A stretch of 44,120 nucleotides of DNA, taken from sequence record NC_019720.1. One strand, written 5' to 3'. The notes under the pieces are model-generated. The model was not told where the DNA came from. It made no database searches and was given only the letters and a program-made list of their open reading frames with translations. Of this stretch, positions 15,188-44,003 are shown one piece after another (positions within the stretch are counted from its first letter, which is position 1; the number at the start of each line of letters is the position of its first letter). Source of the stretch: Enterobacteria phage mEp213. The translations under genes were made by a program, and so were the position numbers.

Positions 15188-15207
15188 GTGCTTCGGCACT
15201 TTTTTTA
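15188..15207 (+). terminator. Terminator-like hairpin immediately upstream of J
   Basis: GTGC-TTCG-GCAC stem-loop followed by T7 that runs into the J start codon. Confidence 0.4.
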
Positions 15208-18200
15208 TGGGTGAAAAAATGCAGCTTCTTAAACAAGAAACCATCCTGCAGGGTGCCAAAGGGGGAGGTGGCAGTTCACATACTCCTGTTGAGCAGCCTG
15301 ACGATCTGTTGTCGGTCGCAAAATTAAAAATGCTCATTGCCGTTTCTGAGGGGGAAATACAGGGCGACCTGACCGCTCAGAATATTTTTCTCAACGATAC
15401 GCCGCTGGCAAACGACAGCGGGGAATACAACTTCAGCGGCGTGAAATGGGAGTTCCGCAAGGGCACACAGGACCAGACCTATATTGCCGGGATGCCCCAG
15501 GTCGACAACGAGCTGGCCGTGGGCACAACTGTCACCACCACCGCGCCCTGGACGCGCCAGTTTACAAACCTTTCCCTGGATGCCATCCGTATCAAGCTCA
15601 GCCTTCCGGTCCAGTATCTCTATAAAGATAATGGCGATATGGTGGGCACGGTCACCGAGTATGCGATCGATTTATCAACGGACGGCGGCGCCTGGAAAAC
15701 GGTTGTAAACGGCAAGTTTGACGGAAAGACCAAGACGGAATATCAGCGTGACCACCGTATCGATCTGCCAAAATCCACGTCCGGCTGGTCTGTCAGGGTC
15801 AGGCGTATTACGGCTGATGCCAGCGGATCAAATTCGAAACTGGTTAACGCCTTCAAGGTGTTTTCGTATGCGGAAGTCATCGACAGCAAGCTTCGTTATC
15901 CTTTAACAGCGCTCCTGTATGTCGAAGTGGACAGCAGCCAATTCAACGGCAGCGCGCCGAAAGTGACCTGTAAGATAAAAGGCAAGCTGATTAAGGTTCC
16001 GGATAATTACGATCCGAAAACCCGAACCTATTCTGGTTCATGGTCCGGCGGGTTCAAAATGGCATGGTCCAATAACCCTGCCTGGATCTTTTACGATCTG
16101 GTTCTGGATGAAATTTACGGCATGGGCACGCGCGTGGATGCGTCCATGGTGGATAAGTGGGCGCTGTATTCAATCGCCCAGTACTGTGACGAAATGGTTT
16201 CCGACGGGGCCGGTGGCACCGAACCGCGTTTCACCTGCAACGTTTTCATTCAGAGCCAGGAGGACGCCTGGCAGGTACTTAACGATCTCGCCGCGGTATT
16301 TCGTGGAATAACGTTCTGGGGCAACGATCAGATTTATGTCCAGGCAGACGTCCCGCAGGACGATGTTGACTGGGTTTATAACGTCTCAAACGTTATCGAT
16401 GGGCTGTTTACTTATGCGGGCGGCTCATACAAGAATCGCTACAGCTCCTGCCTGGTGTCCTGGTCCGATCCGCAGAATCATTACAGCGATACCGTTGAGG
16501 GGGTCTACGATTCGGCGCTGGTAGAGCGTTACGACGTCCGGCAGACGTCCCTGACCGCAATCGGCTGCACCTCGCAAAGTGAAGCGCACCGGCGCGGTCG
16601 CTGGGTATTACTCTCCAATGCCAAAGACGGCACCGTATCGTTTGGCGTGGGGTTGGACGGTTATATCCCTTTGCCCGCTGAAATTATCGGTGTCGCCGAT
16701 CCTTTCCGTTCTGGTAAGGAGAACGGGGGCCGCATAAGCGCGGTCAACGGCCGCCAGATTACCCTTGATCGAGAAATAGACTACGCGGCGAAAGACCGGC
16801 TGGTGGTTAACCTTCCCGACGGAAAAGCCCAGACGCGGACAATCAGCGCGGTGAGCGCCGATAAAAAAACGGTGACGGTGGCTACGGCATTCAGTCAGGT
16901 TCCTGTGGCTGGCGCTGTCTGGGCGATAGACAGTGATAACCTCGCAATACAGTACTTCAGGGTCACCTCAATCGCGGCTAACGACGACAGCACAGGCGGT
17001 TTCACTATTACGGCCGTTCAGCACGATCCAAACAAATATCGTTACATCGATGACGGCGTTCGGGTCGAGTCTCCCCCGATCACCGTCACGCCGATAAGCG
17101 TCCTGTCTGCTCCGAAGAATATCGTGGTGACTGAGAGCGATCATGTGTCTCAGGGGCTGACTGTAGCAAGCCTGGACGTGTCATGGGATAAGGTAGAGGG
17201 CGCAATCCGGTATGTTGCCCAGTGGCGTAAGGACAACGGGGACTGGATAAACGTTCCGGTTACCAGCGCGCAGGGTTTCTCGGTTCAGGGCATTTATTCG
17301 GGCAGCTATGACGTGCGCGTACGGGCACTGAATGCGCAGGATACGTCGTCACCATGGGGATACGGTGAAACAACTTATCTCTCCGGTAAAACGGGAAAAC
17401 CGGGTACTCCGCTCAACTTCCTGGCGACCGAAGATGTGGTCTGGCATATCGACCTGACATGGAAATTTCCGGATGGCTCAGGCGACACGGCCTATACAGA
17501 GATTCAGCGCGCCACAACTGCCGACTACGCCAATCCTGAACTGCTGGTCCTGGTGCCGTACCCGGCTGCAGATTATCAGCATGGCCCCATGCCTGCCGGC
17601 GTTCGCCAGTGGTACCGCGCGCGCCTGATTGACCGTATCGGTAACGCCGGGGACTGGACCGACTGGATCATGGGCACGTCCTCGATAGATGTCAGCGAAA
17701 TAACCAATGACATTCTGGAGGATATGAAAGAGTCGGAAACGTTCAAAGACCTGATCGAGAACGCGGTGGACAGCAACGAAAAAATTGCTGGCATGGCTAA
17801 CGATATCAAACAGGCTAACGACGAACTGGAGCAGCAAGCGAAAGATATCGCCAAAAATGCCCAGGACGTAGGGAAGGTTCAGACCAGCGTTAATGAGCTT
17901 TCCAGCACGGTCGGGAATGTTTCGTCTTCACTCAGTCAGCTTGAGCAGACCGTTGCGACGGCTGATACCGCCCTGGGCCAGCGAATCGACAACATCAGCG
18001 TTTCTATGGACGGCATGACGGGCGGGGTGAAGAACTCTGCAATTGCGATAATCCAGGCCAACCTCGCTCAGGTGGCCACGCGTAAAACCCTTTCTGCATC
18101 GGTCGCCGGCAACAGCGCGAATCTGGACCGTATTGATGAGGTGATTGTCAACGACAGGGAGGCAACGGCGCGCTCGCTGCTGAGCCTGCAGACGGACGTT

Positions 18201-18887
18201 AACGGCAACAAGGCATCCATAAACAGCCTGAATCAGACGTTCTCCGACTATCAGCAGGCAACGGCGCGCTCGCTGCTGAGCCTGCAGACGGACGTTAACG
18301 GCAACAAGGCATCCATAAACAGCCTGAATCAGACGTTCTCCGACTATCAGCAGGCAACGGCCACGCAGATAAACGGCATCACGGCGACCGTGAACGGGCA
18401 TACCTCAGCCATCACCACTAATGCTCAGGCGATAGCCAACGTTAATGGCGACCTCAGCGCGATGTATAACATCAAGGTTGGCGTAACCAGTAACGGGCAG
18501 TATTACGCTGCCGGGATGGGGATTGGGGTTCAGAATACACCCTCCGGCATGCAGTCACAGGTAATATTCCTGGCCGACCGATTTGCTGTTACCACTGCTG
18601 CCGGAAACAGCGTGGCGTTACCATTTGTGATCCAGAATGGTCAGACGTTCATCAGGGCCAGCTTCATTCAGGACGGTACCATTGAGAACGCCAAAATCGG
18701 TAACTATATCCAGTCGAATAACTATGTGGCTGGCTCTGCAGGCTGGAAACTTGATAAGGGGGGCACCTGGGAAAACTGCGGCAGCGACGGTCAGGGAGCA
18801 AGAAAATCCACCAATGTCACTGACAGTATCAGGGATTCAAATGGCGTGCTCCGCGTGCAAATCGGCAAACTTACAGGGGTGTTTTGA
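15207..18887 (+). CDS. J: Tail tip/central fibre protein J (host specificity)
   Basis: 1226 aa; lambda gpJ-like through the N-terminal two-thirds (SSHTP, KWALY.I.QYCD, GGTEPR.TCN); divergent, shorter C-terminus. Confidence 0.9.
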   Translation: MGEKMQLLKQETILQGAKGGGGSSHTPVEQPDDLLSVAKLKMLIAVSEGEIQGDLTAQNIFLNDTPLANDSGEYNFSGVKWEFRKGTQDQTYIAGMPQVDNELAVGTTVTTTAPWTRQFTNLSLDAIRIKLSLPVQYLYKDNGDMVGTVTEYAIDLSTDGGAWKTVVNGKFDGKTKTEYQRDHRIDLPKSTSGWSVRVRRITADASGSNSKLVNAFKVFSYAEVIDSKLRYPLTALLYVEVDSSQFNGSAPKVTCKIKGKLIKVPDNYDPKTRTYSGSWSGGFKMAWSNNPAWIFYDLVLDEIYGMGTRVDASMVDKWALYSIAQYCDEMVSDGAGGTEPRFTCNVFIQSQEDAWQVLNDLAAVFRGITFWGNDQIYVQADVPQDDVDWVYNVSNVIDGLFTYAGGSYKNRYSSCLVSWSDPQNHYSDTVEGVYDSALVERYDVRQTSLTAIGCTSQSEAHRRGRWVLLSNAKDGTVSFGVGLDGYIPLPAEIIGVADPFRSGKENGGRISAVNGRQITLDREIDYAAKDRLVVNLPDGKAQTRTISAVSADKKTVTVATAFSQVPVAGAVWAIDSDNLAIQYFRVTSIAANDDSTGGFTITAVQHDPNKYRYIDDGVRVESPPITVTPISVLSAPKNIVVTESDHVSQGLTVASLDVSWDKVEGAIRYVAQWRKDNGDWINVPVTSAQGFSVQGIYSGSYDVRVRALNAQDTSSPWGYGETTYLSGKTGKPGTPLNFLATEDVVWHIDLTWKFPDGSGDTAYTEIQRATTADYANPELLVLVPYPAADYQHGPMPAGVRQWYRARLIDRIGNAGDWTDWIMGTSSIDVSEITNDILEDMKESETFKDLIENAVDSNEKIAGMANDIKQANDELEQQAKDIAKNAQDVGKVQTSVNELSSTVGNVSSSLSQLEQTVATADTALGQRIDNISVSMDGMTGGVKNSAIAIIQANLAQVATRKTLSASVAGNSANLDRIDEVIVNDREATARSLLSLQTDVNGNKASINSLNQTFSDYQQATARSLLSLQTDVNGNKASINSLNQTFSDYQQATATQINGITATVNGHTSAITTNAQAIANVNGDLSAMYNIKVGVTSNGQYYAAGMGIGVQNTPSGMQSQVIFLADRFAVTTAAGNSVALPFVIQNGQTFIRASFIQDGTIENAKIGNYIQSNNYVAGSAGWKLDKGGTWENCGSDGQGARKSTNVTDSIRDSNGVLRVQIGKLTGVF
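18162..18353 (+). repeat. Perfect tandem duplication, 2 x 96 bp, in frame within J
   Basis: Identical 96-nt units at 18162-18257 and 18258-18353; encodes ATARSLLSLQTDVNGNKASINSLNQTFSDYQQ twice. Confidence 0.9.
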
Positions 18888-19189: not shown

Positions 19190-19863
19190 TGTCTGACTTT
19201 GGCGCAATGATATTAATGGAGAACGGCAATCCCTTTGTTACACCACAATCAACGCCTTTCTGCCTCTACGGAAAATACTCCTTCAATTCCTCAGCTAATG
19301 GCAGCTCTCAGCAGGTGGCGCAATATCTTTCGGTTCCTGACGATTATCCGGCAATGGTCTTCATAAAAACGACTAATACTGCGCAGCCGACCCCGGTCAT
19401 TTCATATCGGATTGGAGGAAATGTCTATATTAGTGGCGTAAATCCCTATAACCAGGGCTTTACGCTGACAGCATATGTATTTGCAATTTTTCCGCAAACA
19501 CTTCCCGCGTGGGGATTTGCTATCTGGGATGCCTCCGGGAAGCTTGTTCTGACGAACGAATCAAGGGTGCTTTCTGATCTGCAAACAGTGGGCACGCCAG
19601 GTGCAAGCGGCGGGATTAATATTGACCAGACGCTGAGCGGGTCATGGGCTGTTGCGCCTGCTCAGTTGGGTCAGACCATCATTGTGAATAATTCAACCAA
19701 GCCTCCGACTATCTACACGATAAATGCTTATTCTTCATGCAGGTTTGACGGGGCCAATACGAGGATAAACGCAGGGGGGACCTCCACTGGGGCAGGTTCA
19801 CCTGGAGGGGGAACGAATACTGGCATTTCATTAACCGCCATAAATACAGCGGCCTATGATTGA
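19189..19863 (+). CDS. Hypothetical protein with two tandem copies of the same domain
   Basis: 224 aa; GTG start overlaps upstream stop, GGAGAAAG RBS; second half repeats the WGFAIWDASGK motif; Gly/Thr/Ser-rich tail. Confidence 0.5.
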   Translation: MSDFGAMILMENGNPFVTPQSTPFCLYGKYSFNSSANGSSQQVAQYLSVPDDYPAMVFIKTTNTAQPTPVISYRIGGNVYISGVNPYNQGFTLTAYVFAIFPQTLPAWGFAIWDASGKLVLTNESRVLSDLQTVGTPGASGGINIDQTLSGSWAVAPAQLGQTIIVNNSTKPPTIYTINAYSSCRFDGANTRINAGGTSTGAGSPGGGTNTGISLTAINTAAYD

Positions 19864-19900
19864 TTGATCGTTTTTAGCGATCAATAACATAATATTGATC
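19863..19900. promoter_or_regulatory. Dyad with three GATC sites upstream of lipoprotein moron
   Basis: ATTGATCG-N7-CGATCAAT inverted repeat plus a third GATC 18 bp away, all within about 40 bp. Confidence 0.4.
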
Positions 19901-19974
19901 TATCCAATCAATTATACCCACCAGAATTGTATTGGTATCGTCTAAGATACTGAATTCCTCTGGATACTATCAAA

Positions 19975-20208
19975 ATGAGAAAACTGATTATCTGCATGGC
20001 AGGCGCTGTCATGCTTACAGGATGCGCTGGCGTAATTGAGAAACAGGAACCAGTTTGCAGCGGCACTGCAATCGTTGGCGGTCAGGAAACTACGGTTCAG
20101 ATTTACGGTGTGCGTAAACAAAACAACCAGACGCAGTACCGGGCTGGATATCCTTTCAGCTGGCGCTGGGTAAGTGCGAATACATTTACCGAAACAACCT
20201 GCAAATAA
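19975..20208 (+). CDS. Small lipoprotein moron (possible Cor-like superinfection exclusion protein)
   Basis: 77 aa; signal peptide with LTGC lipobox; standalone between tail genes with its own downstream terminator; Cor assignment is positional only. Confidence 0.5.
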   Translation: MRKLIICMAGAVMLTGCAGVIEKQEPVCSGTAIVGGQETTVQIYGVRKQNNQTQYRAGYPFSWRWVSANTFTETTCK

Positions 20209-20229
20209 CCCACTACGCTTAAACATAAA

Positions 20230-20252
20230 CCTCGCTCCGGCGGGGTTTTTTT
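20230..20252 (+). terminator. Intrinsic terminator after lipoprotein gene
   Basis: CCTCGC-TCCG-GCGGGG hairpin followed by T7. Confidence 0.6.
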
Positions 20253-20268
20253 ATTGCCTGGAGAAAAT

Positions 20269-21201
20269 ATGCTTTATAACACCGGCACCATCGCCATTAA
20301 TGGAAATACCGCCACCGGGACGGGTACAAACTGGACGGAACCGGCCAGCCAGGTCCGCGCTGGCCAGACGATTATCGTGATGTCTAACCCGGTGCAGCTG
20401 TTTCAGATTTCATCCGTGAACAGCGCCACGTCAATGACGGTTACGCCTGCTGCATCACCGGCGCTGAGCGGCCAGAAGTACGGCATTCTGGTATCAGACA
20501 ATATCTCGGTTGATGGGCTGGCGCTGGCCATGTCGCAGCTTATCAAGGAGTATGACGAGAATATTGGTGCGTGGGAGACGTTCGCCACAACCTCAGCCAA
20601 CCAGAACATTACCGTTACGATCAATGGCACCAGTTTATCAATCCCGGCTCTTGGGAAATTACTGCAGAAGGGGAGCAACGGAGCTTTGCCGGTTAATCAA
20701 GGTGGTACCGGCGCAACGAATGCCGCAGGCGCTCGCACAAACCTTGGTTTGGGAGAAGGTTCTCCAGCTATTGGCGTTCCGTTCTTCTGGCCGTCCGCTG
20801 CAATGCCAAATACTGTAATCGACAGCTGGTCCAGTATGGTGTTTTTGAAGTTCAACGGCGCGAAATTCTCTGCCACTGATTATCCTGTGCTGGCGAAAGT
20901 GTTTCCTTCGCTGGTATTACCTGAAGCCCGCGGTGATTTCATTCGTGTCTGGGATGACGGGCGAGGTGCAGATGGTGGTCGCGAATTATTAAGCTGGCAG
21001 GAAGCTACAAACTTTTCTCAGTTTGCCGGGAATATAGGCGTAGGTGCTGGACACGCAATTAACTTTCATGATGGCATCGTCGGAAATCAGCCAGGATTTT
21101 CACGATTTAATTTCACCAGTAACCCTGCGGGTGGTGGTGTGAATTTTGTTGCTGTCAGACCGCGAAATATTGCATTCAACTTTCTTGTAAGGGCTAAATA
21201 A
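20269..21201 (+). CDS. stf: Side tail fibre protein with C-terminal tail-collar-like domain
   Basis: N-terminal fibre repeats (GTIAINGNTATGTGT), conserved NQGGTGATNAAGARTNLGLG motif, collar-like C-terminus. Confidence 0.8.
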   Translation: MLYNTGTIAINGNTATGTGTNWTEPASQVRAGQTIIVMSNPVQLFQISSVNSATSMTVTPAASPALSGQKYGILVSDNISVDGLALAMSQLIKEYDENIGAWETFATTSANQNITVTINGTSLSIPALGKLLQKGSNGALPVNQGGTGATNAAGARTNLGLGEGSPAIGVPFFWPSAAMPNTVIDSWSSMVFLKFNGAKFSATDYPVLAKVFPSLVLPEARGDFIRVWDDGRGADGGRELLSWQEATNFSQFAGNIGVGAGHAINFHDGIVGNQPGFSRFNFTSNPAGGGVNFVAVRPRNIAFNFLVRAK

Positions 21202-37529: not shown

Positions 37530-37932
37530 CGCCATAGACGCAATACTCTCACTACCCATCGACGACAAGTCACCCCACGAAGTCCACGTTAGAGAACCCA
37601 AACGCAGCAAAGCGCAGAATGACCGTATGTGGCCGATGCTGAACGATGTTTCGCGTCAGGTGCTATGGCATGGTCAACGGCTGGCGCCGGAAGACTGGAA
37701 AGACCTGTTCACTGCCCTGTGGCTTAAGACCAAAAAACTGGAGCAACGAAGTGTGCCTGGTATCGATGGTGGCGTTGTCATGCTTGGCGTGCGTACCAGC
37801 AAAATGCGAAAGGCCAACATGACTGAGCTTATCGAAATCATGTTCTGGTTCGGCTCAGAGCGCAACGTGCGATGGAGTGATGACTCCCGGCGAGAGTATG
37901 AATGGTCACAACGAAAAGGGAAGGCTGCATGA
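37486..37932 (+). CDS. ninB: NinB (Orf) recombination mediator
   Basis: DVSRQV.WHG, VMLGVRTSKMR and WSD motifs as in lambda NinB. Confidence 0.8.
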   Translation: MKQIYMLRNEAIRNNAIDAILSLPIDDKSPHEVHVREPKRSKAQNDRMWPMLNDVSRQVLWHGQRLAPEDWKDLFTALWLKTKKLEQRSVPGIDGGVVMLGVRTSKMRKANMTELIEIMFWFGSERNVRWSDDSRREYEWSQRKGKAA

Positions 37933-38456
37933 CTATCAAATCAAATACGCCAGCACACGACAAGGACTGCTGGCAAACGCCGCTTTGGCTTTTTGATGCA
38001 CTGGATATTGAGTTTGGATTCTGGCTGGATTCGGCAGCGAGCGACAAAAATGCTCTGTGCGCTCACTGGTTAACTGAGGCCGACGACGCGCTAAATTCTG
38101 AGTGGATAAGCCACGGTGCAATCTGGAATAACCCACCGTACAGCAATATCAGGCCGTGGGTGGAAAAAGCCGCTGAGCAGTGCATACAACAGCGACAGAC
38201 GGTAGTGATGCTTGTGCCAGAGGATATGTCTGTCGGATGGTTCAGCAAGGCTCTGGAGAGTGTTGACGAAGTTCGCATCATCACTGATGGACGGATTAAT
38301 TTTATCGAACCATCGACAGGGCTGGAGAAGAAGGGAAACAGCAAAGGCTCCATGCTGCTGATTTGGCGACCGTTCATCAGTCCTAGACGGATGTTTACTA
38401 CCGTATCCAAAGCGGCATTGATGGCGATCGGGCAGGGCGTCAGGAGGGCGGCATGA
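37929..38456 (+). CDS. dam: Phage DNA N6-adenine methyltransferase (Dam-like)
   Basis: NPPYS catalytic motif; ATGA start overlap with ninB. Confidence 0.75.
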
Positions 38457-43903: not shown

Positions 43904-44003
43904 ATGGACGTTTAGACGTCCAAATTGGTGCGAATCAAGTCGCATTCACGCAAATGATAATCATTATCATTTGCGGGTCCTCCCGGCAGGGTGGCCTGCC
44001 ACG

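Follow-up and report, generated by a model that had tools for sequence, protein, structure and literature searches.

The OxyR/Dam loci described so far are agn43, gtr, opvAB, and mom. In P22 gtrABC, GATC1 and GATC2 lie at -110 and -97, 13 bp apart and inside the OxyR(A) half-site (ATTGATCGgtaacaaCGATCAAT); OxyR bound half-site probes in electrophoretic mobility shift assays (EMSA), and methylation of the GATC sites by Dam abolished this binding (Broadbent 2010, PMC2909390). Here, we describe a closely related arrangement upstream of cor, a lipoprotein gene of Enterobacteria phage mEp213 (sequence record NC_019720.1, 44,120 nucleotides, the whole of which is referred to below as the window). 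The arms of a perfect dyad upstream of cor are identical to those of P22 OxyR(A) at 16 of 16 positions and to those of OxyR(C) (ATTGATCGcttgtatCGATCAAa) at 15 of 16. We propose, with a probability of about 0.65, that positions 19863-19912 form an OxyR operator, and that occupancy of this operator competes with Dam methylation of three GATC sites and controls the cor promoter. On the strength of these sequence likenesses, cor is predicted to join the known kind of Dam/OxyR switch.

Within a searchable literature that is incomplete, no paper was found that links cor to OxyR, Dam, GATC sites, or phase variation, and looking for the sequences of this region verbatim gave nothing relevant either. 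In a 2026 review of bacterial epigenetic regulation, the OxyR/Dam switches are agn43 and gtr only, beside Lrp-dependent pap, and cor is absent.

The region upstream of cor compared with known OxyR operators

The elements of the predicted operator are as follows, with positions given in window coordinates and distances relative to the predicted transcription start.

19863-19885, no strand assigned: perfect dyad ATTGATCG-N7-CGATCAAT, with arms at 19863-19870 and 19878-19885 and the loop TTTTTAG
19866-19869, no strand assigned: GATC1 (Dam site), at about -83
19879-19882, no strand assigned: GATC2 (Dam site), 13 bp from GATC1, at about -70
19897-19900, no strand assigned: GATC3 (Dam site), 18 bp from GATC2, at about -52
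19867-19881, no strand assigned: predicted OxyR half-site HS1, ATCGtTtttAgCGAT, matching ATAGnTnnnAnCTAT at 8/10 positions, centered at about -75
19898-19912, no strand assigned: predicted OxyR half-site HS2b, ATCTatccaatCAAT, 7/10, separated from HS1 by a 16-nt spacer, centered at about -44 and abutting the -35
19889-19903, no strand assigned: alternative second half-site HS2a, ATAAtAttgAtCTAT, 8/10, separated from HS1 by a 7-nt spacer

An earlier note on this DNA had reported a perfect dyad with a third GATC 18 bp away, and thus three Dam sites in about 40 bp; both are present, and the three sites (19866, 19879, and 19897) span 35 bp. It had also named OxyR among the factors for which the dyad might be searched. 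When the window was scanned with the OxyR consensus ATAGnTnnnAnCTAT-N7-ATAGnTnnnAnCTAT (37 bp, 20 scored positions), the top site was 19867-19903, with 16/20 matches; the runner-up scored 14/20. Scores of at least 16 were reached in 3 of 500 Markov-simulated 44-kb windows (P=0.006); for the 111-bp gap that precedes cor, the expected number of such hits is about 5e-4. The validated agn43 and mom regions scored 14 and 13, respectively, in the same test.

Two registers are available to OxyR. HS1 and HS2a form a contiguous register (16/20), and HS1 and HS2b an extended one (15/20). GATC1 and GATC2 are at the two edges of HS1, GATC3 is at the edge of HS2b, and the GATCs of gtr A, agn43, and mom sit where the corresponding cor GATCs sit. 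Five operators (those of cor, Mu mom, and agn43, together with gtr A-B and C-B) fit one register, [G-ATCK-N7-CGAT-C]-N16/17-[second half-site]. For the two gtr operators, the second half-site is the consensus ATAG-N7-CTAT and lacks a GATC; for the other three, it is G-ATCK-N7-CWAT, with the third GATC at an equal position. The N16 spacer is common to cor (half-sites of 8/10 and 7/10) and mom (7/10 and 7/10). HS1 has C and G at positions 3 and 13, which create the GATCs and where the OxyR consensus prefers A and T, as expected if the Dam sites themselves were selected; the authors of the opvAB study pointed out that a perfect OxyR consensus would abolish the GATCs (PMC4856963).

A second perfect inverted repeat, GATCAATA-N6-TATTGATC at 19879-19900, overlaps the first dyad. 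Four ATTGAT/ATCAAT units (starting at 19863, 19880, 19894, and 19907) make up a chain of overlapping dyads, which is compatible with alternative protein-binding registers.

Each of the known systems shares some of these features with cor and differs in others. At gtr, as at cor, a prophage alters a phage receptor by lysogenic conversion and the site is upstream of the promoter, and a 13-bp GATC pair lies within one half-site in cor HS1 as in gtr OxyR(A) and OxyR(C). However, gtr has half-sites A, B, and C with N17 spacers, four GATCs, and two tetramer sites (AB activating and BC repressing), whereas at cor a single dyad is joined by one imperfect half-site, with three GATCs in all and a spacer of N16 (or N7). 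As at cor, there are three GATCs at Mu mom, in the arrangement [ATCK-N7-CGAT]-N16-[ATCK-N7-CWAT] upstream of a phage accessory-gene promoter. Its GATC spacing of 18+13 bp is the mirror image of the 13+18 bp of cor, and its GATC pair is promoter-proximal in a site ending near -54 (an estimate), whereas at cor the single-GATC half-site abuts -37. A further difference is that mom requires the activator C. Dam/OxyR control of Mu mom was reportedly described by Bolker and Kahmann in 1989 and by Hattman and Sun in 1997 (the latter as cited in PMC2909390).

The agn43 (flu) locus of E. coli resembles cor in having a single OxyR tetramer site and three GATCs; it contains ATCGtttatatCGAT and cor contains ATCGtttttagCGAT. 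It lies in prophage-like DNA (CP4-44), as cor lies in a prophage, but its spacing is 19+13 (N17) against 13+18 (N16) in cor. The agn43 site is downstream of the transcription start, and OxyR acts there purely as a repressor. In Salmonella opvAB, OBS-C and OBS-D are centered at -75 and -43, compared with about -75 and -44 for the cor half-sites, and are likewise imperfect and GATC-bearing (7-8/10), with a phenotype, phage resistance at a fitness cost, that is also like the one predicted for cor (PMC4856963). Unlike cor, opvAB has four half-sites and four GATCs 46, 19, and 46 nt apart. At opvAB, OxyR is an essential activator (PMC4856963).

Of the analogies drawn in the earlier note, those with agn43 and gtr are well supported, by the architecture shared with agn43 and by the arms shared with gtr, and the one with Lrp-dependent pap fails. 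Pap-type switches have two GATC boxes in a GATCTTTT context, about 102 bp apart (PMC2909390), and a PapI-like co-regulator; neither GATCTTTT nor AAAAGATC occurs in 19850-19975, no pap-type box was found there, and the GATC spacing is 13/18 bp.

Promoter geometry and conservation of the module

The predicted OxyR site adjoins the cor promoter, extending from about -82 to about -37 when the start position is taken from annotation.

19933-19941, plus strand: extended -10, TGgTATCGT, annotated in the phi80 record FN582354
19913-19918, plus strand: weak -35 hexamer, TATACC, 3/6, placed by a 17-bp spacer; the -35 of the phi80 record corresponds to 19911-19916
19949, plus strand: predicted cor transcription start, transferred from the phi80 record FN582354

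The conservation analysis covered 116 cor loci drawn from GenBank phages, IMG/VR, and GTDB genomes, with 85 distinct upstream regions among them. The exact spacing GATC-N9-GATC-N14-GATC was present in 71 of the 85. The region occurs in identical form in 43 complete E. coli genomes. Carriers of this module include prophages of Enterobacter, Rahnella, Hafnia, Citrobacter, Kluyvera, Phytobacter, Dryocola, and Pseudocitrobacter, among others, with Cor proteins of 49-70% identity, and the module is also kept at loci with a different upstream gene. In the most diverged relatives, the 53 bp 3' of the module (promoter and 5' untranslated region) are 25-47% identical to the window and the non-GATC columns of the module 61-71% identical; all 12 GATC bases are identical by selection of the sequences.

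Position-wise conservation was counted over the 66 distinct blocks with all three GATCs in place. In HS1, T6 is kept in 66/66 and A10 in 60/66, and loop positions 9 and 11 are free to vary. The CTAT arm that follows GATC3, part of HS2a, is also retained (T35 in 66/66, A36 in 59/66, and T37 in 48/66); the ATAG arm is not conserved. In HS2b, A10, C12, and T15 are invariant (66/66), and A14 is retained in all blocks but one (65/66). In the extended -10, T(19936), A(19937), and T(19941) are likewise invariant (66/66); G(19934) is found in 64/66 blocks and T(19933) in 61/66. The distance from GATC3 to the extended -10 (TGnTAnnnT) is always 39 nt, the most diverged relatives included.

Ten of the 14 exceptions are decayed remnants with lost GATCs: the HK022 group, N15, Kpn_R1, and loci L006, L008, L114, and L067. 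The HK022 group (L058-L066) shows a precise 4-bp loss of GATC1 together with a change of GATC3 to TATC. N15 (L121) and Kpn_R1 (L126) have GATC changed to GATT, and N15 retains the ATCG-N7-CGAT half-site with only one GATC; single-site changes (to GATA or GATT) are found in L006, L008, and L114. Judged by sequence, these decayed versions resemble locked variants and are candidates for naturally non-switching cor promoters. The lytic T1-like and Dhillonvirus phages, ES18, and POCJ13 carry cor without the GATC module.

What the sequences show directly is the match to OxyR operators, an architecture in common with them, conservation among relatives, and the geometry of the promoter. The identity of the dyad arms to the gtr half-site, the architecture shared with mom and agn43, and the retention of the spacing in 71 of 85 regions all strongly support the view of the earlier note that a putative methylation-sensitive regulatory site precedes an exclusion lipoprotein.

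The cor gene and its product

19975-20208, plus strand: cor, encoding the 77-amino-acid prolipoprotein MRKLIICMAGAVMLTGC..., with the lipobox LTGC
19975-20022, plus strand: cor signal peptide, MRKLIICMAGAVMLTG, followed by C
20023-20025, plus strand: codon of the lipidated Cys
20227-20256, plus strand: intrinsic terminator of cor, a hairpin at 20227-20248 with a 9-bp stem and five GC pairs, then a T-run

Cor is an outer-membrane lipoprotein that inactivates FhuA, and Llp of phage T5 is its functional counterpart. Cor of phi80, N15, and mEp167 blocks FhuA-dependent phage adsorption and ferrichrome uptake, as record notes also state. It is a textbook case of superinfection exclusion and has been treated as constitutive in lysogens. 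By its sequence, the 77-amino-acid lipoprotein of the window is this known exclusion protein: it is 100% identical to Cor of phi80 and 63% identical to Cor of N15. Annotation as Cor is found in mEp043, mEp213, HK140, and phi80, and the product is entered in the phi80 record FN582354 as a lipoprotein of lysogenic conversion, blocking FhuA. A total of 113 homologues were found in the database; where the source gives a name, it is either 'cor protein' or 'phage exclusion lipoprotein Cor'. The lipobox Cys is nearly invariant across the Cor alignment. A Pfam search with Cor matched no family. The gene being already known as Cor, only its control region is in question.

The earlier note had described a 77-amino-acid LTGC lipoprotein gene standing alone between the J operon and the tail fiber genes, with its own terminator. 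This description is accurate: cor is flanked by a 224-amino-acid open reading frame (ORF) ending at 19863 and by a tail-fiber ORF from 20254/20269, and its terminator is also annotated in the phi80, mEp043, and HK140 records. The note had taken the gene for an anonymous moron, which it is not, and its suggestion of a lysogenic-conversion or exclusion lipoprotein was borne out.

The window is a phi80/mEp-type lambdoid phage. Its positions 19700-20300 are 100% identical to mEp043, mEp213, mEp237, and HK140 and 94% identical to phi80. In the mEp213 GenBank record PV340538.1, cor is annotated from an internal ATG as a 65-amino-acid protein (L002 1812-2009, corresponding to window 20011-20208), and the N-terminal part of its signal peptide is consequently lost. 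The 77-amino-acid reading, as in phi80 and mEp043, retains the full lipoprotein signal. The J host-specificity gene (15207-18887) contains a perfect 96-bp tandem duplication at 18160-18361 (2.1 copies, 100% match), which encodes a repeated 32-amino-acid segment (...ATARSLLSLQTDVNGNKASINSLNQTFSDYQQ...) in the C-terminal part of the protein.

Proposed Dam/OxyR switch at cor

In the proposed switch, a tetramer of OxyR, the host LysR-type regulator, would occupy HS1, with GATC1 and GATC2, and a second half-site with GATC3. Depending on the register, extended (the 'reduced-form' one) or contiguous, the second half-site would be HS2b or HS2a, respectively. OxyR would be excluded by methylated GATCs, and bound OxyR would exclude Dam; by this mutual exclusion each state would be heritable. 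OxyR binding to the unmethylated site, and its loss on methylation, are predicted for cor from the identity to the gtr OxyR(A) half-site. Lysogens would then split into Cor-ON cells, with FhuA blocked and resistance to T1- and phi80-type phages, and Cor-OFF cells, with FhuA free and ferrichrome taken up.

For the sign of the switch, we lean slightly toward OxyR as a repressor, following the logic of agn43 and mom, in which case the methylated state would be ON and the OxyR-bound, unmethylated state OFF. The methylated state would be the default ON for incoming phage DNA, with transcription running from the extended -10 promoter, and since incoming, packaged DNA would be methylated, exclusion would be immediate. 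N15, which converts its lysogens despite a decayed module, suggests that the core promoter works without OxyR. In favor of OxyR as an activator are half-site centers that match opvAB (-75/-44), a poor -35, and a strictly invariable distance to the -10. Under either sign, a mixed lysogen population would be expected, with resistance to FhuA-dependent phages traded against ferrichrome uptake.

Several points weigh against the proposed switch. The geometry and the poor -35 suit OxyR equally well as an activator. The second half-site is imperfect (7-8/10), the register is ambiguous, and the spacer of cor (N16) falls 1 bp short of that at gtr, agn43, and opvAB (N17). Conservation of the outer repeat bases, ATTG...CAAT, exceeds the demands of the OxyR consensus, and another protein or an additional constraint may therefore be involved. 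The transcription start is that of a database annotation, and we infer that OxyR binds, that methylation affects its binding, that the states are inherited, and which sign the switch has. Finally, lysogens of phi80 and N15 are classically regarded as uniformly converted, so any OFF fraction may be small.

Alternative explanations

OxyR may bind at cor without heritable switching. The gene would then answer oxidative stress, through oxidized OxyR on HS1 and HS2a, or transient hemimethylation after replication, and the GATCs would only tune affinity. That the contiguous and the extended registers both score well (16/20 and 15/20) fits this explanation, as does Mu mom, which has the same N16 architecture and is not known to phase vary (Broadbent 2010, PMC2909390). 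However, such sites at agn43, gtr, and opvAB phase vary independently of the redox state of OxyR (PMC2909390, PMC4856963), and the strict retention of three GATCs against OxyR-preferred bases suggests that methylation is central. We consider regulation without heritable switching unlikely.

More doubtful is the explanation that the repeats are bound by some other factor (a LysR-type regulator, SeqA on hemimethylated GATCs, or another host or phage protein) or that methylation acts on RNA polymerase. ATTGATC repeats alternate in forward, reverse, forward, and reverse orientation at 19863, 19879, 19894, and 19907, and the dyad is also a generic T-N11-A box. The ATTG/CAAT flanks and AAtCaATTAT (19906-19915) are conserved beyond the OxyR consensus, and another LysR-type regulator, HdfR, is methylation-sensitive at std (PMC6735912). 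Yet the dyad is identical to the half-site in the gtr EMSA fragments that OxyR bound. ATTGATC occurs 9 times in the phage, with 7.6 expected, and is absent from the immunity region, and the module is present in phages of different immunity. The lack of enrichment elsewhere in the phage and the variety of immunity types also argue against a phage-repressor operator, which was rejected.

Chance, or a functionless cluster preserved by kinship, is very improbable, although within a single sequence neither the GATC cluster nor the 8-bp dyad alone is unusual. With 125 GATCs placed randomly in 44 kb, three fall within 35 bp with P=0.34, and perfect 8-bp inverted repeats with loops of 3-12 nt are commonplace (27 in the window, with about 7 expected). 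The 111-bp gap before cor holds three GATCs, with 0.3 expected. It is the OxyR consensus match and the cross-species conservation that make the signal significant; the exact spacing is kept even where adjacent non-coding DNA is only 25-47% identical or where the upstream gene differs.

The least probable explanation, raised as a possibility in the earlier note, is that the dyad is only a terminator or RNA structure of the upstream J/gene-23 operon: its first base (19863) is the last base of the upstream stop codon and folding of the 66-nt RNA is somewhat more stable than that of shuffled controls (z = -2.5), but an AT-rich stem closes a 7-nt loop and is followed by no U-tract, the terminator scan did not report it, the minimum-energy fold leaves the dyad unused, the arms are invariant and never covary although the loop varies, and the tail-fiber genes downstream still need transcription. 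An Rfam search upstream of cor matched no family, the only hits being sub-threshold and on the cor terminator.

Sites for two other regulators were also sought. A Fur box (GATAATGATAATCATTATC) was considered because Cor targets the Fur-regulated FhuA, and it was rejected: the best match in 19850-19975 is 11/19, and 210 window positions score at least equally. The IHF consensus WATCAANNNNTTR has no match in the cor upstream region. At 43950-43974, toward the right end of the window, there is nevertheless a palindromic and almost perfect Fur box, GCAAATGATAATCATTATCATTTGC (17/19 to the consensus), and the corresponding part of the phi80 record lists a 'putative Fur-regulated protein'. The phage, whose Cor blocks the ferrichrome receptor, thus has a second connection to iron away from cor.

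The phage-encoded Dam methyltransferase

37902-38456, plus strand: Dam-family methyltransferase (Pfam PF05869 'Dam', E=8e-65)

The earlier note had reported a phage-encoded Dam-type methyltransferase (37929-38456), and the ORF at 37902-38456 matches this family. The gene lies between NinB and NinG, upstream of Q, in the nin region of the lytic operon. By analogy with lambdoid genome organization, it would be part of a delayed-early lytic operon that is repressed in the lysogen. The module is intact in phi80, which has only a frameshifted dam pseudogene. The location in a lytic operon and the phi80 pseudogene imply that host Dam should suffice. The phage enzyme is therefore probably accessory and not required for the switch, and the tie that the earlier note had drawn between the two is probably incidental; speculatively, phage Dam at most ensures full methylation of progeny DNA.

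The phi80 pseudogene, damL (NC_021190.1, L249, 26494-27379), is in the pL operon, a location different from that of the nin-region Dam of the window, and its record notes the frameshift and a possible slipped-strand correction. GATC is under-represented across the whole window although the phage encodes a Dam-family methyltransferase: 125 sites were counted, with 187 +/- 12 expected from dinucleotide-preserving shuffles, and 100 of 100 shuffles had more.

Wider distribution of the module and implications

An exact scan of IMG/VR for the dyad listed at least 120 matches. At least 67 of the matches listed are at cor, at least 1 is at gtrA, and at least 52 are elsewhere; a third GATC is exactly 18 bp away in at least 41 of the at least 52 listed matches outside cor and gtr. 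Among loci L128-L246, the dyad lies outside cor in, for example, L168 (6997-7019), L190 (3257-3279), L195 (4140-4162), L166 (3337-3359), and L157 (5676-5698). Flanking genes were identified for L190 and L195, which are P2-like prophages with the module between tail-fiber assembly and tail sheath genes, the position of Z/fun in P2. There, the module has the N16 half-site architecture seen in cor and precedes small unannotated ORFs, which encode a 47-amino-acid protein (MELNQEEAE...) and a membrane peptide of about 40-56 amino acids. Searches of these small ORFs against Pfam gave no match, nor did a search of one of them against PHROGs. In L239, the module precedes a gene for a Ner-like helix-turn-helix protein. 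P2 itself lacks the module at Z/fun.

A broader reading of these observations, which we advance only tentatively, is that [G-ATCG-N7-CGAT-C]-N16-[G-ATCK-N7-CWAT], of 46-50 bp, is a portable Dam/OxyR cassette of Enterobacterales prophages, placed before accessory genes beside tail-fiber genes, and that it makes Cor phase-variable. Its instances would be cor in lambdoid phages and the small ORFs at Z/fun in P2-like prophages, with a variant form at gtr and mom. At cor, the cassette would provide bet-hedging, with resistance to FhuA-dependent phages, colicin M, and albomycin set against ferrichrome-iron uptake. The two OxyR registers might add a redox input, and phage Dam might pre-set the state of progeny DNA.

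If the proposed switch operates, cor would be the fifth OxyR/Dam locus, after agn43, gtr, opvAB, and mom, and the first acting on a protein receptor. Cells with blocked and with active FhuA would coexist in a lysogen population, which would bear on phage-host dynamics, on susceptibility to T1-like contaminant phages and to FhuA-dependent antimicrobials, and on the iron-uptake cost of the prophage. Since the cassette also turns up elsewhere in prophages, their accessory genes may be subject to epigenetic phase variation more often than has been recognized.

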